Shown: positions 17,072 to 57,134, counted from the stretch's first letter. The stretch: DNA of 64,000 nucleotides from an uncultured Gammaproteobacteria bacterium (GCA_963797555.1 CAWCPV010000020.1:32001-96000), one strand, 5' to 3'. Notes: generated by a model not told the origin, from the sequence alone. Program-made: numbers and translations.

Positions 17072-17432
17072 ATGGCCAAACGCGGCTGGTATCTGCTCGC
17101 CTACGACATCGCCTGCCCGCGCCGGCTGCAGAGGGTGCAGCGGCTCCTGAAGGGCGAAGGGCTCGCGGCGCAGCTCTCGGTGTTTTTCGTGTTCGGGTCG
17201 CAGGCCGAGGTCTCGGGGCTCCTCGACCGTGTGGCGGAGCGGATCCACGTCCGGGAAGACGATGTCCGCTGCTGGCCGATTCGACCATCCGGGGGCGGTG
17301 TGGTTCCACGGCGAGCCCCCAGTCAAAGGCCCCCTGGCACCGCCGGGCCGCAGACCTCGGCCCGAACAGGCGGAGAGCAAGAAACGGCGCGGCTCGGCGG
17401 TGCTCCGTATCCTGGGGAGGTGGCGGGCTTGA
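17072..17432 (+). CDS. cas2: CRISPR-associated Cas2 (second copy; probable single-base indel near 17280)
   Basis: YLLAYDIACPRRLQRV, QLSVF, EDDVR. Removing one base near 17280 gives ...WPIDHPGAVWFHG...RWRA ending at TGA 17432, which overlaps the cas1 TTG. Confidence 0.8.
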
Positions 17433-18469
17433 CCGGGGAGTTGCTGGTGGTGCTCGACCGTCGGGAAAGCACGGTTCGGCTCGAGGGTCGCGCCTTGCGC
17501 GTCCAGCATGCAGGCGGATGGGAGCGCATCCCCCTGGGGCTGGTGGGCCTGGTGGTGGTCCACGGGAGCCCCTCGGTGTCTTGCGACGTCTGGCGCGCCC
17601 TGGCGGAGCGCGGCGTGCCCGCGGTCATGCTGCCGTCGCGGGGCACCGGCGCGGCCGCCTGGGCCGGTGCCGGGCTGTCCACCAGCATCCAGGTACGGCG
17701 GCGCCAGCACCGGGCGGCCTCGGACCCTCCGCAACGCCTCGCGGTGGCGCGGGAGATTGTGCTGGCCAAGCTGTCTGCCCAGCGAGCCCTCGTACAGGGA
17801 CTGGGTTCCGGCACGATCCCGGTCCTGTTCGACACGGGGGGGACCGCCGCCCTGGTGGCGACGCTGGACAGCCAGTTGGCCGCGGCCCGCACGGCTCCCG
17901 ACCCAACCACCCTCATGGGGGCCGAAGGGGCAGCCGCCTCAGCCTGGTACCAATGGCTCTGCGAACATTTGCCGGGCCGCTGGCGCTTCAGCGGCCGCAA
18001 CCGCCGCCCACCGCGCGACCCGGTCAACGCACTGCTCTCCCTCACCTACACCCTCGCCATGACCGAGGCCCGGTACCAGCTCGAAGCCGCCGGGCTGGAC
18101 CCCGCCTTGGGCTTCCTGCATGGGGTGGTGCCCGGAAGAGACTCCCTGATGCTGGACGTGGTGGAGCCGCTGCGTCCAGGTGTCGACGCTTTCGTGCTGC
18201 GCCTGCTCGAACGGGTGGTCGAGCCGCGGGACTTTCACTACAGCCAGCGGGACGGCTGCCGGCTCAACAAAGCGGCGCGGGGAACGTATTACCAGGCGTG
18301 GGCCGCCTATCGCCTGGAATGGCCGGACCTCGAAGCGCGCGCTGCCGCCGGCAGCGAAGAAGAAGCGCCTGCTTACGCAGGCACGCTCTCCGGTGCCGCC
18401 TGGCGGGTCGTCCAATCCTTGCGGCGTCTCCTGCCCGACTTGGGCGACGAGCCCCAGTCCGATGGGTAA
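17429..18469 (+). CDS. cas1: CRISPR-associated integrase Cas1
   Basis: LMGAEGAAA, FSGRNRRPPRDPVNALLSLTY, GLDPALGFLH and SLMLDVVEPLRP; catalytic E, H and D/E are present. Confidence 0.93.
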   Translation: MTGELLVVLDRRESTVRLEGRALRVQHAGGWERIPLGLVGLVVVHGSPSVSCDVWRALAERGVPAVMLPSRGTGAAAWAGAGLSTSIQVRRRQHRAASDPPQRLAVAREIVLAKLSAQRALVQGLGSGTIPVLFDTGGTAALVATLDSQLAAARTAPDPTTLMGAEGAAASAWYQWLCEHLPGRWRFSGRNRRPPRDPVNALLSLTYTLAMTEARYQLEAAGLDPALGFLHGVVPGRDSLMLDVVEPLRPGVDAFVLRLLERVVEPRDFHYSQRDGCRLNKAARGTYYQAWAAYRLEWPDLEARAAAGSEEEAPAYAGTLSGAAWRVVQSLRRLLPDLGDEPQSDG

Positions 18470-19296
18470 GCTGCTGGACCGGGCACTGACGCCCGATGCC
18501 GTCAACCGCGCCTGGAAGAGCGTCCGAAACGACCGCGCACCGTGGCATGTCGGGATGAGCAGGACGGAAATGGAACGGAATCTTGCGACCCACCTGCTGC
18601 GCCTGGTCGATGATCTGCGACAGGGCCGGTACCGCCCCGATGCCATGAGGCAATTTACGATCGCCAAGGGAGACGGCCGCCAGCGCGTGCTCTCCGCCCT
18701 CACCCTGCGGGACAAGCTGGCGCAGCGCGCGGTCCTGTCGGTTCTCGAGCCCATCGGCGAACAACTGTTCCACCACGACAGCTTCGGCTACCGGGCCGGG
18801 CGCAACGTCGCCATGGCGCTGGCACGGGTCCGGGAGCGGGTGCACTGCGGTCTTCCCTGGCTGGTGGACGCGGACATTCGGGCGTTCTTCGATAACATCC
18901 CCCACCGCCCGCTGCGCAAGGCGCTGGCGCGTGTCGTCCCGGACCGGGAGGTCCTGCACCTCATCGACCAGTGGCTCGAGGTCGGCACGTACCACACCGG
19001 CATCCTCACCGGCCCCCGGGGGGTCCCCCAGGGGGCTGTCATCTCTCCGTTTCTCTGCAACGTCTACCTGCACCAGCTCGACGGACGGCATGCGCGAAGC
19101 GGCGTACCCTTCGTTCGTTATGCCGACGACTTCCTGCTGTTCGCTCCCGACGAGCGGACGGCCGCCAAGGCCCTGAAGCTCGTCGGCGTATACCTGCGGG
19201 AGTCTCGACCTCGAGCTCCACCCCGAAAAGACCCGGGTAGTGCTCTCCGGACCCCAGGTCAGCTTCCTCGGACAACCGCTGCCTGCGCCGCCGTGA
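18462..19296 (+). CDS. Stand-alone CRISPR-associated reverse transcriptase (group II intron-like, short; probable indel near 19199)
   Basis: SFGYR.GR, DADIRAFFDNIPH, GVPQGAVISPFLCNVYLHQLD and FVRYADDF. The shifted frame supplies LELHPEKT..SFLG and stops at 19296. The ATG overlaps the cas1 end. Confidence 0.9.
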
Positions 19297-19663
19297 CATC
19301 GTACGAGCCTAGCTAGCCTACCGCCCCCGCGCCATCCTCAAGCGCCGCAGGCGCTCTCTGCCCCCGCGCGCCCCCATCCCTACCCCTGCTCCCCGCGGCA
19401 GATGAAAACGGCCGCTGCGCCCACCACGACCGTGGACAGCGGCCGGGGGTCAGCTACGAAAGGGAGGAGTGACGCAACCCGTGATGGCGAGCAAGCGCCC
19501 ACATATCCCGATCTGCCAAACATCGCCAACATGGTCTACACTACACTTGGTTTCCAACCGAGACCGTACCGACATGCGTGTAGCTAACTCCCTCGAACAG
19601 TTTCCGTGTCGCCGCGGCAACGCCCAACCGCCTGCTGGCCGTGGCTGTCTCGCGGCAGGGGGG
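19297..19663 (+). promoter_or_regulatory. Probable CRISPR leader
   Basis: Non-coding stretch between the RT gene and the first intact repeat; the degenerate repeats lie at the opposite end of the array. Confidence 0.6.
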
Positions 19664-21894
19664 GGCAGAACGCAGACCTGATGAAGAAGGGATTGAGACA
19701 AGCCTAAACTTCCGCTTTCACTCCCCACGTCGGCAGAACGCAGACCTGATGAAGAAGGGATTGAGACTTGACAAGAAGAGCTATTGCCGCATTATGCCAG
19801 AGGCAGAACGCAGACCTGATGAAGAAGGGATTGAGACATCGGCTGCCGCGCATATCCAACTTCCCGATCTCGGGCAGAACGCAGACCTGATGAAGAAGGG
19901 ATTGAGACATGGACGCCCTGAACGGCGCCGTCAACTCCACGGGCAGAACGCAGACCTGATGAAGAAGGGATTGAGACCGGAACAGCCCGGGGACGCCCAT
20001 CGGGATCAGGTGGCAGAACGCAGACCTGATGAAGAAGGGATTGAGACCGTAGCGTTGGGTGACATACTGCACGATGTCAGGGGCAGAACGCAGACCTGAT
20101 GAAGAAGGGATTGAGACCCGAGAGCCTGCTCTATCGGACTTACATCCCCCGGCAGAACGCAGACCTGATGAAGAAGGGATTGAGACACTGGGCGCGCATC
20201 CCGGCCTACACGCGGTAATAGGGCAGAACGCAGACCTGATGAAGAAGGGATTGAGACCTCACCTCTTTCGATACTGGTAAGGTCATCGAGGGCAGAACGC
20301 AGACCTGATGAAGAAGGGATTGAGACTTCCGTGATACCCGCAATAGAGCGTCATCGCCAGGCAGAACGCAGACCTGATGAAGAAGGGATTGAGACGCGTA
20401 TAGAACCTACCGAACGAGATGATCTTTCCGGCAGAACGCAGACCTGATGAAGAAGGGATTGAGACATGAGCCGGCGTAGTCAGCTATCTGTAGGGCAGAA
20501 CGCAGACTGATGAGGGATCAGAACGCAGCACCTGATGACGAAGGGAATGCAGACCTGATGAAGAAGGGATTGAGACTTGCCACTGACACTCGCAGGATCG
20601 ACGGGCAGAACGCAGACCTGATGAAGAAGGGATTGAGACGACTTGGAGCGCCGCATATTCCGCCAATGTGAGGGCAGAACGCAGACCTGATGAAGAAGGG
20701 ATTGAGACCGATGCGATCCATCTCCTCAAAGCGCGCCTCGAGGGCAGAACGCAGACCTGATGAAGAAGGGATTGAGACTTCCCGAAGGCGGACGGACCAT
20801 CCTGTGTACGCCGGCAGAACGCAGACCTGATGAAGAAGGGATTGAGACCTCCCGAAAGAGCTACCAGCGCTGTTCGCCTCCGGCAGAACGCAGACCTGAT
20901 GAAGAAGGGATTGAGACAGATACAACCTCGGCGGTGCGTCGATCAGGACTTGGCAGAACGCAGACCTGATGAAGAAGGGATTGAGACCCATACGTGATTG
21001 CCGCTAGTAATAGATCAATGAAGGCAGAACGCAGACCTGATGAAGAAGGGATTGAGACCGCCTAAGGTAGTCCTCTGTGCTCTCCTTTCCCTGGCAGAAC
21101 GCAGACCTGATGAAGAAGGGATTGAGACAACGTCGCGAAAATCGTGAACGCTCCGGTTGGGGGCAGAACGCAGACCTGATGAAGAAGGGATTGAGACTCC
21201 AGTCCTTTGATGTAATCGCATGGTGCTAACAGGCAGAACGCAGACCTGATGAAGAAGGGATTGAGACAATTTGAGCAAGGCAGGGTCAAACCATTATCTT
21301 GCGGCAGAACGCAGACCTGATGAAGAAGGGATTGAGACGCTATTCGAAGTCGCATTTGACCACCTCCTCGAGGGCAGAACGCAGACCTGATGAAGAAGGG
21401 ATTGAGACACGTGGACGCAGAGCGACACAGTCGAATTGCCAGGGCAGAACGCAGACCTGATGAAGAAGGGATTGAGACGCCGTGATTCCAGCTACCGCCG
21501 TCAATTTCTTGTGGCAGAACGCAGACCTGATGAAGAAGGGATTGAGACCACCTGTCCGGCAGGTAACTGCTAAGGCTTATGGGCAGAACGCAGACCTGAT
21601 GAAGAAGGGATTGATACTGGAGAAAGAGCGGCACACCTCACTTCACCAGCGGCAGAACGCAGACCTGATGAAGAAGGGATTGAGACATGTTCCTCCCGCG
21701 TTATCAGTGGATTGGCGTGGCAGAACGCAGACCTGATGAAGAAGGGATTGAGACCTGTAGGGATGTGGTCGTTTGGATAGAGAGCCGTAGGCCGAACGGA
21801 GACCTGATGAACAAGGGATTACGACGGCGACCGGAAGGTCACCGTGGCCATGTCCCTTGGCGGGACGGGGATCTGGTGAAGAAGGAGTTAGGAC
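19664..21894 (+). CRISPR. CRISPR array with 36-bp repeat GGCAGAACGCAGACCTGATGAAGAAGGGATTGAGAC; about 32 repeats, spacers mostly 32-35 bp
   Basis: Counted by eye: 29 near-identical repeats, one garbled block (20494-20576) and two degenerate terminal repeats (21790-21825, 21859-21894). The ATTGAGAC 3' end fits the 8-nt type III crRNA tag. Confidence 0.98.
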
Positions 21895-43531: not shown

Positions 43532-44245
43532 TTATCCTCTTCCTTGGGTGGCGCGCCACTGCTCGGCGAGGTGGAGGGCGAAGCGCGTCCCCAGCGCTTC
43601 GTCTTCGTGCATGAAATAGACGTAGGTGCGGGTCAGGGCTTTTGCCGCGATGCGCTCGGCCCAGGCGCGCAGTTCGGCCTCGTCATAGTGGGTCCGCCGC
43701 AGGCGAATATAGCCGCAATCGGACGTGGCCACGTACGGGGTGTCGCCCTGGTCGGTGTCGGTGACACAGAGCATCGCGGCGTGCTCGCGCAGCGTTTCGT
43801 ACACCTCGTTGTCCTGCCACGTGGAGTTGCGGAACTCGAAGGCGGCGCGGGTGCCCGAGGGCAGCAGGCTTAGGAAATCCCGCAGCCGGGGGAGATCCTT
43901 CTTCAGGTATGGCGGCAACTGGAAGAGGAGCACGCCGAGCTTGTGCCCCAGCACCGTGGCGCGCCGCAGGAACTCGGCCACGTTCTGCTCAGCATCGCGC
44001 AGGCGGTTGTCGTGGGTGATGCGGCGCGGCGCCTTGACGCTGAAGGCGAAATGCTCGGGCACTTCCTCGGCCCAGCGCGCGAGCATGGCCTCGTCCGGCA
44101 TCCGATAGAAGGTGTTGTTGATCTCCACCGTCGGGAGACGCTCGGCGTAGTAGCGCAGCATCTCGCGCGCGGGGAGCTTGTCCGGATAGAAATGGCCCAG
44201 CCATTCCTTGAAGGAATAGCCGCTCGTTCCCGCGAACATCTGCAT
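43532..44245 (-). CDS. DUF72 protein
   Basis: GTSGYS..EW.G.FYP, TVEINNTFYR.P, F.VKAPRRITH, LFQLPP, FEFR, YIRLR. Confidence 0.92.
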   Translation of the reverse strand: MQMFAGTSGYSFKEWLGHFYPDKLPAREMLRYYAERLPTVEINNTFYRMPDEAMLARWAEEVPEHFAFSVKAPRRITHDNRLRDAEQNVAEFLRRATVLGHKLGVLLFQLPPYLKKDLPRLRDFLSLLPSGTRAAFEFRNSTWQDNEVYETLREHAAMLCVTDTDQGDTPYVATSDCGYIRLRRTHYDEAELRAWAERIAAKALTRTYVYFMHEDEALGTRFALHLAEQWRATQGRG

Positions 44246-44268
44246 CGGTGTTTGCTCCTACAATGGGC

Positions 44269-46969
44269 ATGGCCAAAAACGAGGCTCAGCGAATACTCCG
44301 CCAAGCGGACCTTCGGCGCCACGCCTGAGCCGCCGCCGGCGCTGCCGGAGGCGCGCAGCGGGCCGCTGCTGTTCGTCATCCAGCAGCATTCGGCCCGGGC
44401 GCTGCATTACGACTTCCGGCTCGAATGCGAGGGCGTGCTGAAGTCCTGGGCGGTGCCGAAAGGCCCGTCGCTCGATCCTAGCAAGAAGCGACTCGCCGTG
44501 CAGACCGAAGATCATCCGTACGAGTACGCCTCGTTCGAGGGCGTCATTCCGCCCGGACAGTACGGCGCGGGCGAGGTGATCGTCTGGGATTGCGGCGTTT
44601 ATTCTCCGGACGAAGGCCACGAGTACTGGTTCCACGACCGCCCGCAAGCGGAGCGGCGGGTGCGGGAGGCCCTCCAGAAAGGCAAGCTCGGCCTCCTGCT
44701 TTGCGGAGAGAAGGTGAAAGGCTCTTTTGCGCTCGTCCGCAGCTCGGACGGTAAGAATTGGCTCCTGATCAAGCACAAGGACCGATACGCGGCGGAGACC
44801 GATATCGCCAGTCAGAACCGCTCGGTGCTGTCGGGAATGGTGGTCGAGGACCTCAAGGTTCTCCCGGCCCATCCCATTCCCGCTTCGCGGCTCGTGCCCG
44901 CGGGCGGGATCGAGGCGATGCCCGCGAAGCTCTTGCCGATGCTCGCCGAATCGGGCGATGCCCCATTCAACGATGCGGACTGGGTGTGGGAGCCGAAGCT
45001 CGACGGCTATCGGGTGCTGGCCTTCGTGGGCGAAGACGGCGTGAGGCTTCGTTCGCGGCGGGGCCTGGAATTGACCGCTGCTTTCCCCCGGTTGAGCGCG
45101 GAGCTCGCTCAGCAGGCCGCGAGCATGGTCCTGGACGGGGAGATCGTGGCCTTCGACGCGAGCGGCAAGCCGTCGTTCGGTGCCCTGCAGAATCGCGTTC
45201 AATTGAAGACCGAGCGGGAGATCGCGGCGGCCGACCGGAACGCGCCCGCGGTCTTCTGCTGCTTCGATCTGCTGCACTTCGCCGGCCTCGACCTGCGCAA
45301 GGCGCCGTATCGGGACCGGCGGCGCTACCTCGCGCAGTGCCTGCTGCCTTCCCCACTCGTGCAGCGCGTGCACTCCCAGGAAGACGGCGTCGCCCTGCAT
45401 GCGGCGGCGCTCGCGAGCGGCTTCGAGGGAGTCGTCGGCAAGCGCAAGGACAGCCGCTACGAAAGCGGCCGGCGCTCGGCGGCGTGGCTCAAGATCAAGT
45501 CGATGAACAGCGCGGAATTCGTCGTCGGCGGCTACACGAAGGGGAAGGGCTCGCGCGCGCCGCTCGGGGCGCTGCTGGTCGGCTACTGGGACGAAGGAAA
45601 GCTGCGCTATGCGTCGCACGTCGGGTCGGGCTTCGATGGGGACAGCCTGGCGGAGATGAAGGCGCGGCTGGACCCCCTGCGCAGGGATACCTGCCCGTTC
45701 GCCGAGAAGCCGGAGCTACACAGTCCGACCACCTGGGTCGAGCCCGAAGTCGTCGCCGAGGTGAAGTTCCAGAACTGGACCGACGACGGCTTCCTGCGCG
45801 CGCCGGTCTTCCTGCGGCTGCGGGACGACATCGATCCGAAGACCGTGCGGCGCCCCGGACGCGGCCAGGCAGCGGCGCCCGCGGCTGCAAGCGCCGGCGG
45901 AGAGATCGACGACATCCTGCGGCAACTGGAGAGCAGGAAGGCGGCGTTCACCCTCGCAGTCGGTGCGCACCAGATCCGGCTGACGCATCTCGACCGCGTG
46001 TACTGGCCGGCCGATCCCGCTCTCGCGCAGCCCGCCTTGACCAAGCGCGACCTGCTGCGTTATTTCGCGCAAGTATCTGCCTTCATGCTGCCGCATCTCG
46101 CGGACCGGCCCCTCACCATGATCCGCATGCCAGACGGCATTTACGGGCAGCGTTTTTTCCAGAAGCACTGGGAGCAGCAGCGTCCCGAGTTCGCCGAGAC
46201 GATCACCGTGTTTTCGGAGCACAAGGACGAAATCCACCAGTATCTGCTGTGCAATAACTTGCCGACGCTCCTGTGGCTCGCGCAGTCCGGGTCGATCGAG
46301 TTCCACGTCTGGCATTCGCGTGCCAAGCCCGGCCCGGACGCGGCGAGCCGGAGCACCGACTACGCCGCCTCGGCCGCCGCGCTGGAGGGCTCGGTGCTCA
46401 ACTATCCCGACTATGTCGTGTTCGACCTCGACCCGTACATCTATTCCGGCAAGGAGGCGCCGGGCGCCGAGCCCGAGCTGAACACGGTCGCCTTCGAGAA
46501 GGGCAAGGAGGTGGCGTTCCAACTGCGCGAGCTGCTGCAGAGCATGTCCATCGAGCCCATCGTCAAGACCTCGGGCAAGACCGGACTGCACGTTTTCGTG
46601 CCGGTCGAGCGGACGCTCGATTTCGATGCCGCGCGGCAAGTGAGCGAGCTGATCGGCCGGCATCTGGTACGCCGCCACCCGAAAGACATCACGATGGAGT
46701 GGAGCATTCCCAAGCGAAGCGGGAAGATCTTCCTCGACTATACTATGAACGTTCGCGGCAAGACGCTGGCCGCTGCCTACTCGCCGAGAGGCGCGGCCGG
46801 CGCGCCGGTGTCGATGCCGCTCACGTGGGAACAGCTCGCCGGTGCGCACCCGCTCGACTTCAGGATCAGCAACGTCGCGCACCGCCTGGCGGAAACGGGC
46901 GATCCCTGGCGCGACGCCCTGAGGCACAAGCAGAGCTTCGAGCGCGCCCTGGGACGCGCCAAGGCTTAA
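44269..46969 (+). CDS. ligD: NHEJ DNA ligase D (phosphoesterase-ligase-polymerase); start codon out of frame by one base in an A run
   Basis: PE domain (HYDFRLE, SWAVPKGPS); ligase domain (EPKLDGYR, LDGE, EGVVGK); polymerase domain (FDLDP, KTSGKTGLH). Confidence 0.95.
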
Positions 46970-47027
46970 CCGGTCATGGCGATGATCGCCACCCCAGAGC
47001 ATGAAGACCCCTGCGTCATGACCGGTT

Positions 47028-47062
47028 CCCTCACCCCTCCCTCTCCCGCACGCGGGCGAGGG
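47028..47062. repeat. REP-like GC-rich palindrome
   Basis: CCCTCACCCCTCCCTCTCCCGCACGCGGGCGAGGG between ligD and ku, resembling a common proteobacterial intergenic palindrome. Confidence 0.5.
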
Positions 47063-47114
47063 TGAGGAGGAGCGCCTACGGCGTGTTTTCACAGTAATGG
47101 GATCGGAGGCAAGC

Positions 47115-47942
47115 ATGGCTGCACGGTCGATTGCGTCGTTGACGGTTTCCTTCGGACTGGTGGCTATCCCGGTGAAGCTTTATTCCGCCACCGAGGCGAG
47201 CCGGGCGATCTCGTTCAACCTCCTGCACAAGACGTGCGGATCGCGCCTCAAGCAGCAGTACGTCTGCGTCAAGGAGGAGGTCGTGGTGCCCCGCGAGGAC
47301 ATGGTGAAGGGGTATGAATTCGCCAAGGAGCAGTACGTGACGTTCGCGCCCGAGGAGCTGCAGGCGCTCGAGGAGGCGGGTACGCACAGCGCCGAGATCA
47401 CGGAGTTCGTGCCCATCGAGGCGATCGACCCGGTGTTCTTCGACAAGGCCTACTACCTCGCTCCCGACAGGGGCGGCGCCAAGCCCTACGCGCTGCTCGC
47501 GCGAGCCTTGCGCGAATCGAAGCGTTGCGCGGTCGGCCGCTGGGCCGCGCGCGGCAAGCAGTACATCGTGATGATCCGCCCGGTCGAGGACGGTCTCGCC
47601 ATGCAGCAGCTCCTCTACGCCGCCGAGGTGAGGTCGATCAAGGACCTCGACATCCCGAAGACCGACGTGAAGGACGCCGAGCTGAAGCTCGCGCACCAGC
47701 TCATCGAGCAGCAGGCCTCCGACAAGTTCGAGCCCGCCGCCTACACGGACGAGGTGCGGGCGCGCATCGAGGCCGCGGTGGAGAAGAAAGTGCAGGGCCA
47801 GGAGATCACGATGGCGGAGGAGCCCGCAGGCGGCGCGCAGGTCATCGACCTGATGGAGGCGCTGCGCGCGAGCCTGGAGAAGAAGCCGGCCAAGCGCGCA
47901 CAGCCGGCCAAACCGGGTGCCCGGAAGGCTGGCAAGAAATAA
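47115..47942 (+). CDS. ku: NHEJ Ku protein
   Basis: SFGLVAIPVKLYSAT, VKGYE, YYLAP, VIDLMEALRASL and a basic tail. Confidence 0.95.
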   Translation: MAARSIASLTVSFGLVAIPVKLYSATEASRAISFNLLHKTCGSRLKQQYVCVKEEVVVPREDMVKGYEFAKEQYVTFAPEELQALEEAGTHSAEITEFVPIEAIDPVFFDKAYYLAPDRGGAKPYALLARALRESKRCAVGRWAARGKQYIVMIRPVEDGLAMQQLLYAAEVRSIKDLDIPKTDVKDAELKLAHQLIEQQASDKFEPAAYTDEVRARIEAAVEKKVQGQEITMAEEPAGGAQVIDLMEALRASLEKKPAKRAQPAKPGARKAGKK

Positions 47943-48932: not shown

Positions 48933-49259
48933 TCAAACGCCAACTTCCTTTAGCTCGCCGGCCTTCACGTGTGATAAGACACGCTCTAGTTCCGGAACAA
49001 GGGGCCGAAGAAACTCTAGCTTGTTTCTCGGGGCCACCAACACCACCACGGCGATGTTCCGACCCGAGACCGGCTGCTGGTACTTGAGCTTTTGATCAGT
49101 AGTAATGAGAACATCGAAATGGGACTCGGCAAGCTGAAGCAGTTCGCCGTTCTCCTTCGCCGCCCAGCCCATCTCTGGGACGGTTCGCACCTCATGGTTC
49201 GGCAGCTCTCGCCGAAGACGGCGTGGTACGCATTCGTCAAGCAGCAGTCGCACGCTCAA
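48933..49259 (-). CDS. DUF5615/VapC45-like PIN toxin
   Basis: LLLDECVP, GW...NGELL, LITTD; overlaps the DUF433 gene. Confidence 0.85.
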   Translation of the reverse strand: MSVRLLLDECVPRRLRRELPNHEVRTVPEMGWAAKENGELLQLAESHFDVLITTDQKLKYQQPVSGRNIAVVVLVAPRNKLEFLRPLVPELERVLSHVKAGELKEVGV

Positions 49260-49461
49260 TCAGGGAGTCCTTGGCCGCCTGCAGAACCGCAACCGCATGC
49301 TCGCGGCTCACCGTGGGAAAGTCCTCCAGGAACTCGTCTAAGGAACTACCTTCTTCTAGATAGTCCATGAGGGTCTGCACCGGCACCCGCGTGCCCGTGA
49401 ATACGACGGCCCCACTCATGACCGTTTTCGAGCTGCTTATCAGGGGATCCGGAACACTCAT
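49237..49461 (-). CDS. DUF433 antitoxin
   Basis: MSGAVVFTGTRVPV..L.DYL..G.SLDEFLEDFPTV. Confidence 0.9.
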   Translation of the reverse strand: MSVPDPLISSSKTVMSGAVVFTGTRVPVQTLMDYLEEGSSLDEFLEDFPTVSREHAVAVLQAAKDSLIERATAA

Positions 49462-49555
49462 CCCATTCCTCCCATTTTCCCAACGCCAGCGGCTCATTCC
49501 AAAGCTCAGGGGTGCGCGGCTGTCCGATCGCCCGCCTTGAGCTGCGGGAGACGCG

Positions 49556-49792
49556 TCACTCCCGTACGCCGACCGTAAGTTGTTCGGCGTGCACCAAGTG
49601 CTCATTGTCAGGAATCGGCTGGCTGTGGGCAAGCAAGGCATCGATGTGCTGTGAGACGCCAGCCGCATGTTCCGCTTGGCTTCCTATCGTCTTGCCTTTG
49701 CCAAAACATCCGGGCAGGGTTCGGCTGTAGGCGTAATAGTCTTCGTCCTCGGGTTCCTTCTCGATAAGAATTTCGAAGGTGTAATAGTTCAT
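49556..49792 (-). pseudogene. HicB-like antitoxin, probably degenerate
   Basis: YTFEILIEKE.ED..YYAY...LPGC...GKTI, then a disrupted helix; no hicA seen. Confidence 0.6.
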
Positions 49793-50732: not shown

Positions 50733-51084
50733 CAAAGAGCGAAGGCTCTCCAGACGCGCTGGCCCCGCATCCAACCCTTCGGCGTTGTAATGGTGATGAA
50801 CAACGGGGTCGAACCTTGCGGTCAAGCGTGATTGATTGCAGATGCGGGGTCGAGGCGAACAGGCAGGTTCGAGCATTGCCCGCCGACATCTTTGAGCTAC
50901 GCTGAGATGCCTGATTGCAAGACCTGACGCCGTGGTTTCCGCATGCCGGGTCACGCCTTCTTTTAGGTGTTCCTTTCTCGCTGCCTCAAGGTAGAACGTG
51001 TCGTCGTGAGCGCTCCTTGCGTAATTAGCTCCCACCCCCGGACCTCCCCACGTTCTGACTGTCCTCAGCCTTGACGCCCCCTAG

Positions 51085-52610
51085 CAGCCTGTCGGACTTA
51101 GCCCTGTACAATAGCGGCCACTGCCCCGAGGAGTTTTGAGATGAGCCGCTTTCGCCCGATTGACCGTGACACGGACTTTCTGTTGCCGCCGTCGGTGCAG
51201 GACTGGCTGCCCGAGGCCCACCTGGCGCGCTACGTAGTGGAGGTGGTCGAAGGACTGGCCCTTGGCGAGCTGGAGCGCGCCTATGCCGGCAACGGAAGCG
51301 CGGCCTACCACCCGGCGCTGCTGCTGTCGCTGCTGATATACGGTTATGCCACGGGCAGCTTCTCCAGCCGCAAGATCGAGCGGGCGACCTACGATTCGCT
51401 GGCCTTTCGGTTCATCGCCTGTAACCAGCATCCCGACCACGACACCCTGGCGAGTTTTCGGCGGCGCTTTGGCAAGCAATTCGAAGCGGCCTTTGTGCAG
51501 GTCCTGCAAGTGGCACGAGAGAACCAGATCAGCCGCTTCGGCACGGTCAGCCTGGACGGCACCAAGCTGCACGCCAACGCCAGCCGGCACAGTGCCTTGT
51601 CTTACGGCCACGCCGAGCAGATCGAGGCCCAACTCAAGGCCGAGGTCCAAGAGCTGCTCGCACTGGCCGAACAAGCTGACCAAACGGCGGTGGCGGACGG
51701 GATGAGCCTTCCGGAAGAACTGCAGCGCCGGCAGGACCGTCTTGCGGCCATCGCCGAGGCCAAGGCCAAGATCGAGGCACGCGCCCAGGAACGTTTCGCG
51801 CGCGAGCAGGCCGACTATGAAGCCAAGGTGGCCGCCCGTGCGGCCAAGGCCGCGGCAAGCGGCAAGAAACCCGCTGGCAAGGAGCCGAAGCCGCCCCAGC
51901 CCGGGCCACGTGCCGAAGACCAGATCAACCTGACCGACCAAGAATCCCGCATCATGCCCGTGGCGGGCGGCGGCTTCGAGCAGAGCTACAACGCCCAAGC
52001 GCTGGTGGACAGCGAGACGATGCTGGTGGTTCTCGCCCACGTCACCCAAGCGGCCAACGACAAAGAGCAGGTCGAGCCGATGGTCGGAAAACTCCAAGCC
52101 CTGCCCGAGGGGCTGAATCAGCCCGAGAAGCTTCTGGCCGACGCCGGTTACTTCAGCGAGCACAACGTTGCCGCTTGCCAGCAGGCTGAGATCCAACCGC
52201 TCATCGCGGTAGGCCGGGAGGGGCATCATCCCCATTGGACGGAACGCTTCAGCGAGCCGCCGCCACTGCCGGAAAAGGCGGGGCCGCTGGAGACGATGAA
52301 GCACAGGCTCAAGACACGCCAAGGCAAAGCGGACTATGCCCTACGCAAGCAAACCGTGGAGCCGGTCTTCGGTATCATCAAGTCGGTGATGGGATTTCGC
52401 CAATTCCTGCTGCGTGGCCTGCAAAACGTCCAAGCCGAATGGACGCTGGTGTGTCTCGCCTGGAATCTAAAACGCATGGCCGCATTGCGTCTGTAACCGG
52501 GAAGTTGGCGGAAAAATGGCCAAATTCCGGCCCTAAATCGCCCATTTTGGTGCCAAAGCAACACTGAAACGGTTTGGGATGGTCTTGGGAAGCTCAAGTC
52601 CGACAGGCTG
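51085..52610 (+). mobile_element. IS1182-family insertion sequence, apparently intact
   Basis: Perfect 15-bp TIR CAGCCTGTCGGACTT / AAGTCCGACAGGCTG, flanked by CTAG on both sides. Confidence 0.92.
51141..52496 (+). CDS. IS1182-family DDE transposase
   Basis: LLPPSV.DWLPE.HLA, SSRKIE, PDHDT, LDGTK, TD.ESRIM, YNAQ, ADAGY, RKQTVEPVFG.IK. Confidence 0.95.
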   Translation: MSRFRPIDRDTDFLLPPSVQDWLPEAHLARYVVEVVEGLALGELERAYAGNGSAAYHPALLLSLLIYGYATGSFSSRKIERATYDSLAFRFIACNQHPDHDTLASFRRRFGKQFEAAFVQVLQVARENQISRFGTVSLDGTKLHANASRHSALSYGHAEQIEAQLKAEVQELLALAEQADQTAVADGMSLPEELQRRQDRLAAIAEAKAKIEARAQERFAREQADYEAKVAARAAKAAASGKKPAGKEPKPPQPGPRAEDQINLTDQESRIMPVAGGGFEQSYNAQALVDSETMLVVLAHVTQAANDKEQVEPMVGKLQALPEGLNQPEKLLADAGYFSEHNVAACQQAEIQPLIAVGREGHHPHWTERFSEPPPLPEKAGPLETMKHRLKTRQGKADYALRKQTVEPVFGIIKSVMGFRQFLLRGLQNVQAEWTLVCLAWNLKRMAALRL

Positions 52611-52716
52611 CTAGTGCCTGGCACAGGATTGTGCTCGGGCAGGGCCAACGGCAGGGCACCGCGCCCGCCCTATGACAAGAATCATGGCGAAATCCATGGA
52701 TGCTCGGGAGGCCAGC

Positions 52717-55641
52717 ATGACCGCGCAACCTTCACACGCCGCACCACCCCTGCCGGTACGCGTCTTTCTCGCCTCGCCGGGCGACGTGACCGACGAGCGG
52801 GCGCTGGCCCTGATAGCCTTGGGGCGTCTCCCCTACGACGTGTTCCTGCGCGGCCGAATTGCCGTGGAGACCATCGCCTGGGACAAGCCGGGGGCCGACA
52901 CCCCGATGCTGGCCACCCTGACGCCCCAGGAGGCCATTGCCCAGCAGCGGCCCAAGCCCTCCGAGTGCGACATCGTCATCGTGATCTTCTGGTCGCGCAT
53001 GGGGACGCCGCTACCGCCCGAGTATGTCAAGCCCGATGGCAGCGCCTACCTCTCCGGCACCGAGTGGGAGTACCTCGACGCCCTCGAAGCGTCGCGGCAA
53101 GAGGGCCGGCCGAAGGTGCTGGTCTACCGCCGCACCGAGGAGCCGCGCTTCGGGGCCGACGATCCGGGCATTGGGGGGAAGCTTGAGCAATGGCACCTCG
53201 TCAAGACCTTCTTCGCGTCCTTCCGCAACCCCGACGGCTCGATTCGCAGTGGTGTCAACGAGTATGACACCCCCGACGCCTTCGACAAGAAGCTCACCGA
53301 GCACCTGAGAGAGATCGTCCAGATGCTGCTCACCGAGCACCAGGCCGAATTAGAGGTGCCGGCGGCCGCGAAGAGCCCCGAGGCGGTGCAGGCGTCCGAA
53401 GGTCCCGAGCAGCCGCCGCTTTGGAAAGGCTCCCCGTTTCCGGGGCTGCGCGCCTTCGGCGAGGAAGATGCGCCGATCTACTTCGGCCGGGGGAGGGAGA
53501 CCGACGGGCTGATTCGCCGCCTGGCCGAGGGCGAGCGGTTCATCACCGTGGTGGGCGCCTCCGGCTCCGGCAAGTCATCGCTGGTGGCGGCGGGCTTGCT
53601 GCCGCGACTCAAGGACAACGCCATCCCCGGAAGCCGCGACTGGGACCGGGTGCGCTTCACGCCCGGTGAGCTGGCGGAGAACCCCTTCATCGCCTTGGTC
53701 TCCGGCTTCAAGCCGGCGCTGGAACGGCACGCGCGGCAAGTGCGCGAGGAGGCAAAGAAGCTGGAAGCCGATCCCGGCGCGCTCGGCGAGCTGGTCGGGC
53801 TGATGCTCGCGGGCCAGCCCGAGTGGTCGGAGCTGCTGCTCTTCGTCGACCAGTTCGAGGAGCTGTTCACGGTCGCTGATGCGAAGTACCGCGACCGCTT
53901 TAGCGAGCTGCTCGCGTGCGCGGCCAAGCTGCCGCGGCTGCGCATGGTGGCGACCCTGCGCGCCGATTTCTACCACCGCTGCGTCGAGCAGCCCGCGCTG
54001 GCCGAGCTGCTGCGCACCGGCTCCTACCCTCTGGCGGCACCGGGTGTCGGGGCGCTCCACGAGATGATCACCCGGCCCGCGGGGCGTGCGGGCCTCTCGT
54101 TCGAGGCGGAACTGCCGGAGCGTATTCTGGACGACACCGGTGCGGAGCCCGGCGCCCTGCCGTTGATGGCCTTCGCCTTGCAGCAGCTCTACGACAGGCG
54201 CACCCCCGAAGGGCAGCTCACCCACGCCGCCTATGAGACCTTCGGTGGGGTGAAAGGCGCGATCAGCCAGCGTGCCGAGGACACCTTCCGGGCACTGGGC
54301 GCGGACGCCAAGGCGGCGTTCGCTGCCGTGTTCGGGGAGCTTGTGGGTGTGGACGCAACCGAAGCGGGTTGGGTGGCCACCCGACGGCGCACACCGCTGG
54401 CGAAAGTGGCACCGACGCCCGGGGCGCAGAAACTGGTTGCGGGGTTCACCGACGCGCGGCTGCTGCTGCAGGGCAAGGGAGAGGACGATGCCCCTGTGGT
54501 GCAGGTGGCTCACGAGGCGCTGCTGCGCAACTGGCCGCGGCTGATGGACTGGATCGCAAAGACCGGCGAGGATCTGGCGATTCTTGGGCAGCTCCGGCGC
54601 GCTGCGGACGAGTGGCAGCAGCAGGATCGCCGAGGCGATCTGCGCTGGCCGTGGGGGCGCTGGAAGCAGGCCGAGGGCGTGCTCGGTCGGTTGCAGGTGA
54701 CCCTGGACGAACCAGGGCGGTCCTTTCTTGGTGCGAGCCGCAGGCGCACGCGGCGGCAGACCGCGTTGCTCGGCCTCGTTCTCGCCGTCTTTAGCCTGTC
54801 GGGCTGGTTCGGGATCTTCCTATATCGGGAAGGCGTCACTTTCAGGTACGCCCTCAGTGTGCCGACCGAGTGGGTGCGCTACAGGCTAAGGGTGTCTGAC
54901 CTCAGGGAGCCGGCGATGGTGGACATCCGCCCCGGGCAGGTCCCCTTCCCGCGGTCTTTCCAGATGGGTTCCGGCGACGATGAACCGGAAGCCGCAGAGT
55001 TCGAAAAGCCGCGCCACGAGGTGAGCTTCTTCCGGCCCTTCGCCATCGGTAAGTTCGAGGTGACCTGTGAGGAGTACGCGTACTTTGTGGGTAAGGCGGG
55101 GGCTCGCAAACCTATCGACTCTGGTTGGGGGTGCGGGAGGCGGCCGGTGATCGACGTTTCCTGGGAAGAGGCCCGGGACTATGCGCACTGGCTCTCGCTA
55201 GTGACCGGCAAGGTCTATCGGCTGCCTACGGAGGCGGAGTGGGAGTATGCGGCGCGCGCCGGAACACACACGCAGTACTGGTGGGGCAACGATCTTGAGG
55301 AGGGCGGCAAGGTGTGGGCGAACTGCGTCGGGTGCGGCAGCCAATGGGTTGGGATGGAGACCGCGCCGGTGGGCTCCTTTGTGGCTAACCCGTGGGGGTT
55401 GTACGACACGGCGGGCAACGTCTGGGAGTGGGTGCAGGACTGCTGGCACGACAAGTACAAGGGTGCGCCGTGCGACGGTGCCGTGTGGCTGGAGGCCGAT
55501 GGCGGCGACTGCGGTCGGCGCGTGGTCCGCGGCGGCTCCTGGGGCTACGCACCGAGGTACGTGCGCTCGGCGGTGCGTGACAGGAACCCGGCCGGCGACC
55601 GGCACTTCGCCCTCGGTTTCCGCCTCGCCCAGGACCCCTGA
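52717..55641 (+). CDS. DUF4062-like + STAND (nSTAND1-like) NTPase + TM + FGE-sulfatase (CLec-fold) protein; putative DGR target
   Basis: VFLASPGDV..ER, SPFPGLRAF, GASGSGKSS, LFVDQFEELFT, PGALPL, VAHEALL, a TM segment, RLPTEAEWEYAAR, GNVWEW, RGGSW...GFRLA. Confidence 0.9.
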   Translation: MTAQPSHAAPPLPVRVFLASPGDVTDERALALIALGRLPYDVFLRGRIAVETIAWDKPGADTPMLATLTPQEAIAQQRPKPSECDIVIVIFWSRMGTPLPPEYVKPDGSAYLSGTEWEYLDALEASRQEGRPKVLVYRRTEEPRFGADDPGIGGKLEQWHLVKTFFASFRNPDGSIRSGVNEYDTPDAFDKKLTEHLREIVQMLLTEHQAELEVPAAAKSPEAVQASEGPEQPPLWKGSPFPGLRAFGEEDAPIYFGRGRETDGLIRRLAEGERFITVVGASGSGKSSLVAAGLLPRLKDNAIPGSRDWDRVRFTPGELAENPFIALVSGFKPALERHARQVREEAKKLEADPGALGELVGLMLAGQPEWSELLLFVDQFEELFTVADAKYRDRFSELLACAAKLPRLRMVATLRADFYHRCVEQPALAELLRTGSYPLAAPGVGALHEMITRPAGRAGLSFEAELPERILDDTGAEPGALPLMAFALQQLYDRRTPEGQLTHAAYETFGGVKGAISQRAEDTFRALGADAKAAFAAVFGELVGVDATEAGWVATRRRTPLAKVAPTPGAQKLVAGFTDARLLLQGKGEDDAPVVQVAHEALLRNWPRLMDWIAKTGEDLAILGQLRRAADEWQQQDRRGDLRWPWGRWKQAEGVLGRLQVTLDEPGRSFLGASRRRTRRQTALLGLVLAVFSLSGWFGIFLYREGVTFRYALSVPTEWVRYRLRVSDLREPAMVDIRPGQVPFPRSFQMGSGDDEPEAAEFEKPRHEVSFFRPFAIGKFEVTCEEYAYFVGKAGARKPIDSGWGCGRRPVIDVSWEEARDYAHWLSLVTGKVYRLPTEAEWEYAARAGTHTQYWWGNDLEEGGKVWANCVGCGSQWVGMETAPVGSFVANPWGLYDTAGNVWEWVQDCWHDKYKGAPCDGAVWLEADGGDCGRRVVRGGSWGYAPRYVRSAVRDRNPAGDRHFALGFRLAQDP
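55519..55641 (+). other. Putative DGR variable region (VR)
   Basis: Most positions that are Asn (AAC) in typical CLec template repeats are occupied by NNC codons: GGC TAC, TAC, GAC, AAC, GAC-CGG-CAC-TTC-GCC. Confidence 0.65.
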
Positions 55642-55677
55642 TCCTCTATGCTTTATTCTTTTACCCTTTGCGGGGGT

Positions 55678-55697
55678 CCAGGGGGCTTGCCCCCTGG
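55678..55697. promoter_or_regulatory. GC-rich hairpin downstream of the VR (DGR cis-acting stem-loop candidate)
   Basis: CCAGGGGG-CTTG-CCCCCTGG, a perfect 8-bp stem about 37 bp after the stop codon. Confidence 0.65.
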
Positions 55698-55796
55698 TCG
55701 CGCGCTGCGCGCGCCCGGGAACACGACCCCTGGCGTACCGGGTCGGCGCCAAACGGTTCTCTCCGGCGCCTGCCCACGATTGAAATCCTCGAAAAC

Positions 55797-55895
55797 GTGA
55801 GCGACGGCACACGGCAAGCGGTCCACGCGTGCCATGGGCTGATCCGCTGGCTGATTCCGCAGCTCGACAAGTTCCCGCGGGTTCGTCGCAGGTTC
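55797..55895 (+). pseudogene. avd: Truncated DGR accessory protein Avd
   Basis: QAVHACHGLIRWLIPQLDKFPRVRR matches the Avd N-terminal W..P...KFPR pattern, then similarity is lost. Confidence 0.7.
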
Positions 55896-56110
55896 GATGT
55901 TGCGGTGTTCTGGTTGCAAGACCGCGATTCGGCTACCGATTATGAAGCCCTGCACGTGAAACGCAACGCTCCGCGCTGGATCGAGGCCCTGAGGCGCGAC
56001 GGCTTGCTGCCAGCCGCCGCCTGCATGCTTCTTCCCCCATCCTATGGCCTTCGTGGGTCAGGCCCCGTCACGCCGGGGAAGCCGGTTCTTTCACGTTAAA
56101 GCAATCTGCG

Positions 56111-57134
56111 ATGCAGCATGCACTCTCCCGCTTCTCACCATCTGCGTCTCGGGGTGACGGCCGAGCGGAAACCGGCCGGGGGAGGCAGCAGCCTGCGAAG
56201 ATTCCGGTCGGCATCAGCAGTTGCCTGTTGGGGGCGGGGGTGCGCTACGACGGCGGGCACAAGCACGACGCGTACGTCAATGGCACGTTGGGACGGTATT
56301 TCGAATTCTTCCCGGTCTGTCCCGAGGTGGCCATCGGTCTCGGAACCCCGCGGCATCCGATCCGACTGGTCGGCGACCCGGATCACCCGCGGGCGGTCGG
56401 CGTACGCGATCCCGGCCTTGACGTCACGGAAAAGCTGGCCCTCCACGGAGCCGAGATGGGACGGGCGCTCTCGGGCATCAGCGGCTACCTGTTCAAGAGC
56501 GCATCGCCTAGCTGCGGCATGGAGCGCGTGAAGGTCCACAGCGGCAAAGGCCTGGCGACTCCAAGGGGGGTCGGAATATATGCCCGGGCCTTCATGGCGC
56601 AGCAGCCGCTCCTGCCGGTGGAGGAGGAGGGTCGTCTGGGGGACCCGGTGCTGCGCGAGAGCTTCATCGAACGGGTGTTCGTCTACCACCGCTGGCAGGA
56701 GCTGGTCGGTCGGGGCCTCACGCCGGGCGGGTTGGTGGATTTTCACACCGAGCACAAGCTCCTCGTGATGGCCCACAGCCGGGCCGCCTATCAGCGTCTG
56801 GGGCGGCTGGTGGCCAGGGCCGGACTGACGCCGATGGGGGAGCTAGGCCGCGAGTATGTGACCGAACATGGGTGCGCTCAAGCGCAAAGTGAGCCGCGGC
56901 CGCCACGCCGACATCCTCATGCATCTGCTCGGCTATCTGAAGCGAGCGTTGGATGCGGCCGACAAGGACGAGGTGCTGTCCAGCATCGACGACTATCGCA
57001 AGGGTCCAGTGCCGCTTATCGTACCCATCGCCCTGCTCGATCACCATTTCCGCCGCCACCCCGATCCGTATGTTGCGCGTCAGCACTACCTGAATCCCTA
57101 TCCCGATGACCTCATGCTCAGAAACACCGTTTGA
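56111..57134 (+). CDS. DUF523-DUF1722 (YbgA-like) protein; frameshift near 56865
   Basis: GISSCLLG..VRYDGGHK, VCPEV.IGL, SPSCG, EEEGRL; second frame H..GYLK...Q.YLNPYP..LMLRN. Confidence 0.88.

Follow-up and report, generated by a model that had tools for sequence, protein, structure and literature searches.

A predicted membrane-spanning STAND receptor with a retroelement-written C-terminus beside a broken cassette in an uncultured gammaproteobacterium

The receptor gene and its surroundings

The stretch of DNA considered here (the window) comprises 64,000 nucleotides from an uncultured Gammaproteobacteria bacterium (GCA_963797555.1 CAWCPV010000020.1:32001-96000, which is G000:C20:32001-96000 in our numbering of genomes and contigs), and the gene in question encodes a STAND-type receptor whose C-terminus bears the marks of a diversity-generating retroelement (DGR). 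In DGRs, error-prone reverse transcription of a template repeat (TR) puts any base at the template adenines, which diversifies the variable region (VR) of a target gene. The genome consists of 5.35 Mb on 20 contigs, with 65% G+C and a completeness of 84.6%. All locus coordinates count from the start of the window, and residue numbers count from the opening of the open reading frame (ORF) at 52672, so that the Met at 52717 is M16. The features of the locus, including the insertion sequences (IS) on either side, are as follows.

51080..52614, + strand: complete IS with a DDE transposase ORF at 51141-52496 (Pfam DDE_Tnp_1, DDE_Tnp_1_6, DUF772)
52717..55641, + strand: receptor gene (ORF list; full-length relatives 53-72% identical)
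52744..53346, + strand: residues ~25-225, DUF4062/NIR-like (TIR/NDT-fold) domain, predicted effector (Pfam, PADLOC, fold, homologues)
53434..54633, + strand: residues 255-654, nSTAND1 STAND NTPase (Pfam PF20703, E 1.3e-108)
54760..54828, + strand: residues ~697-719, single transmembrane helix (hydropathy maximum 2.2)
54910..55629, + strand: residues 747-986, FGE-sulfatase/C-type-lectin-fold (CLec) sensor domain (Pfam PF03781, 4.3e-52)
55516..55635, + strand: core of the DGR variable region, last 40 codons (comparison with the VR on contig C7 and a TR on contig C14)
55656..55697, + strand: T-rich motif (ending TTCTTTTACCCTTTGCGGGGGT) and, behind it, a GC hairpin with an 8-bp stem; together the cis element of the target's 3' end (fold, conservation)
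55791..55889, + strand: truncated avd stub, ~33 codons of the N-terminus (BLASTP to the Avd proteins of the genome)
55921..56102, + strand: 3'-terminal relic of an IS110-family element, with the last transposase codons and the element end TTTCACGTTAA (genome copies)

The receptor is encoded by a single ORF at 52672-55641 (+), which is open for 989 amino acids and has 974 codons from M16. The ATG at 52717 (M16), already taken as the start in the initial annotation of the locus, is indeed the likelier one, as GGGAGG is found 6 nt before it and homologues begin at the aligned Met. That annotation had described one ORF joining a DUF4062-like domain, a STAND NTPase, a transmembrane helix and an FGE-sulfatase/CLec domain, and we could verify all of these elements, with the DUF4062 match lying below its own cut-off. 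The nSTAND1 match scores 364 bits against a cut-off of 27.1 and covers profile positions 1-377 of 379, and the translation has both GASGSGKS (Walker A, with the P-loop intact) and the Walker B-like FVDQFEE. The only strongly hydrophobic 19-mer in the receptor starts at residue 699 (Kyte-Doolittle 2.2), between the nSTAND1 and FGE-sulfatase domains, and the sequence RRRTRR directly precedes the helix. According to the positive-inside rule, the Arg-rich flank of a transmembrane helix is its cytoplasmic side; because these five Arg precede the helix, the ~700 N-terminal residues are predicted to be cytoplasmic and the lectin-fold domain to lie outside the cytoplasm. The C-terminal domain matches PvdO (5.5e-42), FGE and the DGR variable protein TvpA (2y3c, 4.7e-15) among sequences in the PDB, and its NCBIfam matches all fall far under their cut-offs (167 versus 500 bits for PvdO). 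The receptor gene is intact: its 974 codons contain no stop or frameshift, the P-loop and the invariant residues of the N-terminal domain are kept, and the G+C content at third codon positions (GC3) is 0.85, like that of other genes.

The stop codon is followed by the cis element expected at the 3' end of a DGR target. The 8-bp hairpin reported in the initial annotation is found at 55678-55697 (CCAGGGGG-CTTG-CCCCCTGG), preceded by a T-rich stretch that is unusual for a genome of 65% G+C. Both the motif and the hairpin recur behind the VR on C7, as well as behind VRs of the complete DGRs on C14 and C6, the C6 form being a variant, and the stems include a compensatory change (CCAAGGGGG/CCCCCTTGG); the hairpin is thus conserved, with covariation, behind active VRs. 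They are also found in relatives from other organisms, namely at locus L056, at L154, whose hairpin differs in sequence, and in part at L033. The cis element at the receptor VR is intact.

The same cannot be said of the cassette that would be expected behind it. The stub at 55791-55889 has the translation ENVSDGTRQAVHACHGLIRWLIPQLDKFPRVRR and is 75% identical over 24 amino acids to residues 17-40 of the Avd of a C14 DGR and 61% identical over 33 amino acids to the avd relic on C7; it also matches the Avds on C4 and C3, and every alignment ends at the same residue, at nt 55889. The proposal that the hairpin is followed by the N-terminus of a broken avd is therefore upheld by 24-33 residues that align to genuine Avds of the genome. 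The C14 Avd matches Pfam bAvd (PF22296) at 1.2e-16. The stub at 55791-55889 has no Pfam or NCBIfam match, and a full four-helix bAvd is not recognised in it, a result that formally counts against calling the downstream peptide Avd; it fails the Avd hidden Markov models because 33 codons are too few.

The avd alignments end at 55889 and a fragment of an IS110-family element begins at 55921. Nine other copies of this fragment in the genome are 76-81% identical over ~180 nt, and there are three shorter partial matches; the aligned copies have the common 3' end TTTCACGTTAA, and seven of them lie directly 3' of Transposase_20 (PF02371) matches. The stub and the transposase tail are in one frame and form a chimeric 143-codon ORF at 55668-56099, which should not be annotated as a gene. 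Because avd ends at 55889, the IS110-family relic follows from 55921, and TR and reverse transcriptase (RT) are absent nearby, the local DGR cassette is dead; it has been destroyed, and an IS fragment now marks the break. At the C7 locus, likewise, avd is frameshifted and truncated, and TR and RT are absent. An ORF past the C7 avd relic, at ~535.9-536.2 kb, begins MNRPLCFVLMPFGKKPDAGGSVVDFDAVYRELIAPAIEE and by eye resembles TIR/NDT-like nucleotide-processing domains.

A second solo avd stub, at C2:16273-16374 (-), ends LCHELLGWPIPQLDKFPRVRR and breaks at the same codon as the stub in the window. No VR or hairpin lies upstream of it, and the segment upstream at C2:16395-16625 is 89.5% identical to C4:543187-543420, just upstream of a full-length paralog on C4. 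The common breakpoint of the two stubs may reflect common descent or a recombination hot spot.

On the other side of the receptor, the complete IS ends ~100 bp before the start codon. It measures 1535 bp, with a copy that is 100% identical at C2:81503-83037 and an 84% identical copy on C3; its insertion is recent, because the second copy is 100% identical. A simple consensus scan of 52400-52800 found no sigma-70-like promoter between the end of the IS and the ATG of the receptor, a result that carries little weight in either direction.

The variable region and the search for its template

The last 40 codons of the receptor align codon for codon with the VRs and TRs of the genome. The initial annotation had pointed to NNC codons at Asn-type positions where templates read N-R-N-N-N, and this holds: the codons GAC CGG CAC TTC GCC (55597-55611) stand opposite AAC CGG AAC AAC AAC in the TR at C14:7804-7928. 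The most telling comparison is with a sister VR at C7:535041-535341: over the core (55516-55635, C7:535157-535276) 106 of 120 bases are identical. The 14 mismatches fall mainly at codon positions 1 (6) and 2 (7), with a single one at position 3, whereas the mismatches in the upstream flank are distributed 13, 9 and 17 over the three positions (Fisher p=0.02 for flank versus core). All 14 lie in AAC-type codons at sites where a template would carry adenine, and 13 of them correspond to an actual adenine in the homologous C14 TR (Fisher p=6e-9), so that the adenine specificity on which the DGR assignment in the initial annotation hinged is present. Orthologues that are 53-72% identical over their full length are hypervariable at the VR positions and keep the scaffold RV.RGGSW..P...RSA.R……GFRLAQD. 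On these sequence comparisons, the C-terminus is a genuine DGR product.

The relation between the window and C7 loci carries further information. Outside the VR they have diverged: the upstream flanks are 66-67% identical (55340-55399 and 55450-55490), the avd stubs 68%, and the proteins 38% over the STAND region. Selection at the protein level is ruled out as the reason for the identity of the VR scaffolds, because synonymous sites are identical too. The identity of the two cores except at adenine sites indicates that both were written from one TR, as the pair of VRs at C14 illustrates, and since the avd stubs are 68% identical but the scaffolds 100%, both VRs appear to have been rewritten from that TR after the cassettes diverged. 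We infer that at least one of the two loci was served in trans.

To find DGRs elsewhere in the genome, we scanned 3.5 kb on either side of 19 RT or Avd matches for TR-VR pairs. Five complete DGRs emerged, comprising eight TR-VR pairs whose mismatches are adenine-specific, with C14:9492-9617 among the VRs. Their TRs are listed here by locus.

C14:7804-7928: TR of the DGR at C14 ~8 kb
C6:61146-61272: TR of the DGR at C6 ~61 kb
C4:376905-377038: TR of the DGR at C4 ~376 kb
C14:227735-227860: TR of the DGR at C14 ~228 kb
C3:47664-47783: TR of the DGR at C3 ~47 kb

The RTs of these loci are 39-52% identical to a C14 RT, or are that RT itself. Two of the DGR targets, C4:372694-375029 and C4:377258-379522, are nSTAND1-FGE proteins that align to both the STAND region and the CLec domain of the receptor. 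The RT of the C3 DGR appears as two adjacent high-scoring segment pairs and may carry a frameshift. Further VR-like C-termini that are without a cognate TR lie at C7:535k, C4:546k, C14:445k, C3:802-805k (three) and C2:191k.

None of the five TRs is cognate to the receptor VR, which has 16-28 non-adenine mismatches to each of them, compared to 2-6 in the eight cognate pairs; because of this difference, no assembled TR can, as judged by its sequence, have written the receptor VR. A BLASTN search of 55400-55760 at word size 7 against the 20 contigs returned other VRs and one TR (C14:7807-7929, 71.5%), and no further TR-like copy of the VR in the 5.35 Mb. Thus, of what the initial annotation had expected from such a search, other targets were found, and a TR differing almost only at adenines was not. 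Its statement that the window lacks both a TR and a DGR RT stands: on contig C20 the VR matches only itself, with no TR copy, and a DGR RT query finds a single RT match on that contig, a CRISPR-linked RT at window positions 18180-19316, leaving no DGR-clade RT at the locus. This RT was considered as a DGR RT and rejected, as it is linked to Cas1 and shares 30% identity with a DGR RT, compared to 39-52% among the DGR RTs of the genome. We infer that the VR was last rewritten from a TR common with the C7 paralog that is not one of the five assembled TRs.

Variation in the VR was sought in public reads with one index search, which returned three soil-metagenome runs from a single study, with 9-22% of the sampled words present. 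Logan contigs from these runs are 150-500 bp long with a depth of 2-4, too thin for rare variants. Two of them reach into the VR, at 55237-55544 and 55428-55578; they show no difference from the window and may stem from the source sample. At a depth of 2-4, these public contigs gave no sign of population variation in the VR, as their sequence agrees with the window wherever the two overlap.

Comparison with other genomes bears on whether a cassette normally accompanies such receptors. No orthologous locus was found in 40 same-class relatives, of which 7 weakly match the FGE domain. Avd matches are present in 8 and RT matches in 6 of 78 metagenome loci, many of them too short to judge; among 76 loci from species-representative genomes, 59 of which we judged informative, an RT is present in 13 and, by the criteria we applied, a TR in 8. 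Most loci in both sets match the CLec domain only, so these counts say little about the orthogroup of the receptor. A transmembrane-like segment between the STAND and CLec domains is present in 29 of 77 full-length relatives by a crude count, the closest ones listed among them.

Three full-length relatives, L033, L111 and L154, have at least 2 kb of downstream sequence, and no cassette is found beside any of them. At L154, Avd, RT and TR were not found within 6 kb and both the T-rich motif and the GC hairpin are kept; at L033, the cassette was not found in 2 kb and the hairpin only is kept; at L111, it was not found in ~2.9 kb and neither motif nor hairpin is clear. The genome of L154 (G041), a 54% identical orthologue, contains seven VR-like matches to it with 74-90% identity. 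None of the seven is a TR, and none has Avd or RT within ~1.5 kb; two DGR-like RT loci in G041 likewise have no matching TR within 3.6 kb. Six of the matches (L188-L193) are sister VRs with a common scaffold and 74-82% identity; most of them precede a T-rich stretch and three precede a clear GC hairpin. The set, of at least six VR-like sequences besides L154, looks like a multi-target family served in trans. The seventh, L194, a 58-nt match, was considered as a TR and rejected, as it is part of another FGE-domain gene.

The predicted effector domain and the explanations for the locus

The N-terminal domain is a divergent, DUF4062/NIR-like one. Residues 1-255 score 16.1 bits against DUF4062 (PF13271), with a cut-off of 24.7, and the match extends over residues 30-137 and the entire profile (1-82). 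In an alignment of 30 members, consisting of the receptor and 29 short homologues, 27 of the N-terminal domains match DUF4062 at E<=0.01 (best 8.5e-7). Among the PADLOC candidate defence proteins, PDC-S60 resembles the domain at its N-terminus (1.3e-9). It is widespread: a word-indexed search found it in 1203 proteins at E<=0.001 among 4823 candidates, and an exhaustive search found 3939 representatives at 50% identity at E<=0.001, 667 of them at 1e-30. Among the 120 matches listed, most combine the domain with nSTAND1 and FGE-sulfatase in ~950-1000 amino acids; others among them are fusions to WD40, NACHT or TIR.

Invariant columns of the alignment include E42, R43, W70, C99, R109, G129, T130, E133 and Y152; the motif G129-T130-x-x-E133 is invariant, and E133 is kept in 30 of 30 sequences. 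The AlphaFold2 model of the domain alternates beta strands and alpha helices in a Rossmann-like manner (predicted local distance difference test 85.3, predicted template modelling score 0.78). Foldseek against the PDB gave weak matches only, to TIR and flavodoxin-like folds (E ~6e-5, template modelling score 0.35-0.53). VIA-align against 48,161 representative chains ranked TIR domains first (TIRAP, Z 10.3; MAL, 9.9; the SfSTING TIR, 9.7; RPS4/RRS1, 9.7), followed by the CMP hydrolase MilB (9.3), RCL (8.7) and deoxyribosyltransferases (~8). One of two companion preprints from 2026 reports the same profile of fold matches for DUF4062, namely TIR, CMP hydrolase and deoxyribosyltransferases, and both show that DUF4062 domains, that of the STAND protein Avs2 among them, act as NADases and need a Glu to do so (10.64898/2026.09.04.749371, 10.64898/2026.05.01.722283). 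By analogy, E133 in G-T-x-x-E is the predicted catalytic Glu, and the domain is a predicted NAD+-cleaving effector, the NADase chemistry not being certain.

A mechanism can be proposed from what the protein families suggest. The lectin-fold tip outside the cytoplasm would bind a ligand, such as a component of a phage or other invader, and binding would cluster the single-pass receptor. The nSTAND1 module, a predicted oligomerisation switch, would then oligomerise, and the DUF4062/NIR domains, brought together, would cleave NAD+, so that the cell stops (abortive infection).

We favour the explanation that this intact gene specifies an NLR/STAND-type receptor that crosses the membrane once and bears a DGR-written tip, and that the receptor is recently orphaned and most likely of frozen specificity; we give it a probability of roughly 55%. 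It is the absence of the TR from the five assembled ones that makes an orphan with frozen specificity most likely. The TR is missing from the 85% of the genome that is assembled, and IS activity at the locus is high. The initial annotation had offered two options, a remote target of a DGR elsewhere or the relic of a deleted cassette, and both were partly right. The avd stub ending at 55889, the IS110-family fragment from 55921 and the lack of a nearby TR or RT bear out the relic; a TR outside at least one of the two loci would have written both VRs, as a remote target implies, with the cognate TR itself not found in the assembly.

Several observations weigh against this explanation. The receptor's own DUF4062 score is under the curated cut-off, and the fold matches of the N-terminal domain are moderate (Z ~10) and common to NDT, MilB and flavodoxin-like folds. 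It is pure conjecture that a signal crosses the single transmembrane helix, and so is the kind of ligand proposed, and expression is unproven, with no promoter-like site between the upstream IS and the start codon in the consensus scan. With the assembly 84.6% complete, a cognate TR and RT may exist unseen; the match of all 106 non-variable VR positions to C7 argues for very recent, maybe ongoing, homing; and L154 (motif and hairpin) and L033 (hairpin) keep the cis element without a nearby cassette, which fits service in trans.

These last points also speak for a tentative alternative, in which the receptor is an active remote DGR target. Here a unit of TR, RT and Avd would lie in the 15% of the genome that is not assembled, or a strain variant or unbinned plasmid would carry it, and this unit would go on rewriting the receptor and C7 VRs in trans by way of the conserved T-rich motif and hairpin behind each. 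Identical VR scaffolds (106/106 positions) between diverged flanks (68% for the avd stubs, 66-67% for upstream coding DNA) imply that a TR outside at least one of the two loci wrote both; the cis element at the receptor is intact; and L154, where no cassette was found within 6 kb, keeps motif and hairpin, as does L033 in part, where 2 kb contain none. Parts of the work on Thiohalocapsa PB-PSB1 document both trans service and structural variants with intact cassettes (PMC10907252). However, no such TR was found in the 5.35 Mb on 20 contigs at word size 7 or among the five TRs compared, and the only public contigs over the VR, which may stem from the source sample, are identical to the window. 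With about the same probability as this alternative, the receptor and its C7 paralog could be orphan antennae of a DGR hub, in which their own cassettes have decayed and one unassembled TR-RT unit rewrites both VRs in trans by way of the T-rich motif and hairpin. Under this reading, a programmable, periplasm-facing sensor would be retained by the cell and would fire a DUF4062/NIR NADase across the membrane, making it a transmembrane NLR with an adaptive-like ectodomain. If receptors are served in this way, one could search genomes for remote DGR targets simply by the conserved T-rich motif and hairpin after the stop codon.

Two other explanations deserve less weight. It is unlikely that the gene is a decaying remnant, unexpressed and turning into a pseudogene after loss of the cassette and arrival of the IS ~100 bp upstream. 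That IS (51080-52614) is recent, with its 100% identical second copy, no promoter-like site lies between its end and the start codon, and the downstream neighbours are both broken, one being the avd stub with the IS relic and the other a frameshift-split DUF1722 gene. However, the 974 codons without stop or frameshift, the GC3 of 0.85 like that of other genes, and the retained P-loop and invariant residues of the N-terminal domain argue against decay; a consensus promoter scan is weak evidence, and IS elements often supply outward promoters. It is highly improbable that the gene is not a DGR target at all and simply bears an ordinary FGE/PvdO-like enzyme domain on a STAND ATPase, with NNC codons due to high GC3. 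In the PDB and NCBIfam, the C-terminal domain is indeed closest in sequence to PvdO and FGE enzymes, and NNC codons are common anyway at a GC3 of 0.85, but the NCBIfam matches are far below their cut-offs (167 versus 500 bits for PvdO), the pattern of mismatches to the C7 VR and C14 TR contradicts such an origin, and the conserved hairpin element, the avd stub and the sequence match to TvpA all speak for a DGR.

If the favoured explanation of an orphaned receptor is true, the locus captures a DGR-diversified immune receptor just after loss of its diversifier, with the breakpoints still readable in the avd stub, the IS110-family relic and the fresh upstream IS, in a genome that allows comparison with five working DGRs and several other orphans.

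No EAD pair, protease or other partner gene is found near the receptor, which has as neighbours LigD/Ku genes, a DUF433 and PIN-like pair, a NikA/RHH-like gene, an ABC transporter and the split DUF1722 gene. In the stretches 43943-47942 and 48933-49668, the LigD gene (ligase, phosphoesterase and primase-polymerase) and the Ku gene are a non-homologous end-joining pair, and the adjoining DUF433 and PIN-like (DUF5615) pair on the opposite strand is of toxin-antitoxin type. The 2-thiouracil desulfurase/DUF1722 gene (56111-57134) is split by a frameshift that is either real or an assembly error: an ORF at 56111-57109 contains PF04463 and the first 36 DUF1722 positions, and positions 39-117 of DUF1722 are encoded at 56868-57134 in a different frame. 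Farther away, 17072-21800 looks like an RT-linked CRISPR adaptation module: a Cas2-Cas1 fusion ORF (17072-18469) overlaps the RT ORF (18180-19316; RVT_1, 7.5e-33), an overlap and change of frame that may represent a frameshift, and the RT is followed by 32 copies of the 36-nt repeat GGCAGAACGCAGACCTGATGAAGAAGGGATTGAGAC, ~70 nt apart, from 19664 (region to 21800).

Relation to known systems

The prototype DGRs are those of Bordetella phage BPP-1 (mtd-avd-TR-brt) and of Treponema denticola TvpA, and they have in common with the receptor locus a CLec domain that ends in the VR, adenine-specific changes in AAC-type codons, a 3' GC hairpin and an avd gene directly downstream. The C-terminal domain of the receptor resembles TvpA in sequence (4.7e-15). 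Unlike the prototypes, the receptor is a cellular rather than a phage target and is fused to a signalling ATPase and an effector, and its locus has a truncated avd without TR and RT.

Closer counterparts are found in two studies, parts of which are drawn on here. Kaur et al. (2021, eLife, PMC8195603) defined nSTAND1, linked STAND NTPase-FGS counter-invader proteins to DGRs located either beside them or elsewhere in the genome, and listed N-terminal effectors that include TIR, DRHyd and calcineurin (PMC8195603). Doré et al. (2024, PNAS, PMC10907252) described nine DGR loci in Thiohalocapsa PB-PSB1, some of them incomplete, disrupted by transposons or served in trans, and one no longer varying. 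The targets there include an nSTAND1 protein (DGR 6), a NACHT protein (DGR 3) and a STAND NTPase system (DGR 1), some targets are predicted to be inside the membrane and others outside it, and for DGR 3 and DGR 7 structural variants were seen in which the cassette is intact (PMC10907252). In the parts concerned, the receptor is like both the STAND NTPase-FGS proteins and the PB-PSB1 targets in having a central nSTAND1, a VR in a C-terminal FGE-sulfatase/CLec domain and an N-terminal effector of the nucleotide- or NAD+-processing type, as well as an RT and a four-helix accessory gene that are adjacent or elsewhere, and several paralogs per genome. This genome also resembles PB-PSB1 in that transposons have disrupted loci and that certain VRs would depend on a TR in trans or have stopped varying.

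The differences are of three kinds. Compared to the effectors named in those parts of both studies (TIR, DRHyd, calcineurin, EAD8 and others), that of the receptor is a divergent DUF4062/NIR domain, to which DRHyd may or may not correspond. The transmembrane helix sets the CLec domain outside the cytoplasm, by prediction, an arrangement described for one PB-PSB1 target and not the rule there. Finally, the receptor has no cognate TR in the assembly, whereas PB-PSB1 DGR 1 is reported to match the TR of DGR 3.

NADase effectors of the DUF4062/NIR group are described, in the main texts of 2026 bioRxiv preprints, in PsAvs2, Swarozyc (KpSwz), Vulcan, Vesta and human TEP1. Like PsAvs2 as presented there, the receptor has a TIR-like N-terminal domain with a conserved Glu ahead of a STAND NTPase. 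Whereas the sensors in these texts are TPR or other repeats, that of the receptor is a lectin-fold domain written by a DGR and placed, by prediction, on the far side of the membrane. Its DUF4062 match is below the Pfam cut-off, and its activity is a prediction from sequence and model. The main texts of the preprints do not mention sulfatase or retroelement, nor does one of them mention lectin; the supplements may list such architectures.

Both the architecture and the existence of incomplete or trans-served DGR loci are thus already in print, and the receptor locus fits that picture, which it leaves unchanged while adding a well-documented case. The receptor joins DUF4062/NIR NADase effectors (2026) and DGR-written lectin-fold sensors, which are separate lines in those parts of the cited papers on which we draw, and this union comes in a form predicted to span the membrane, with the transmembrane helix kept in all of the closest relatives listed.

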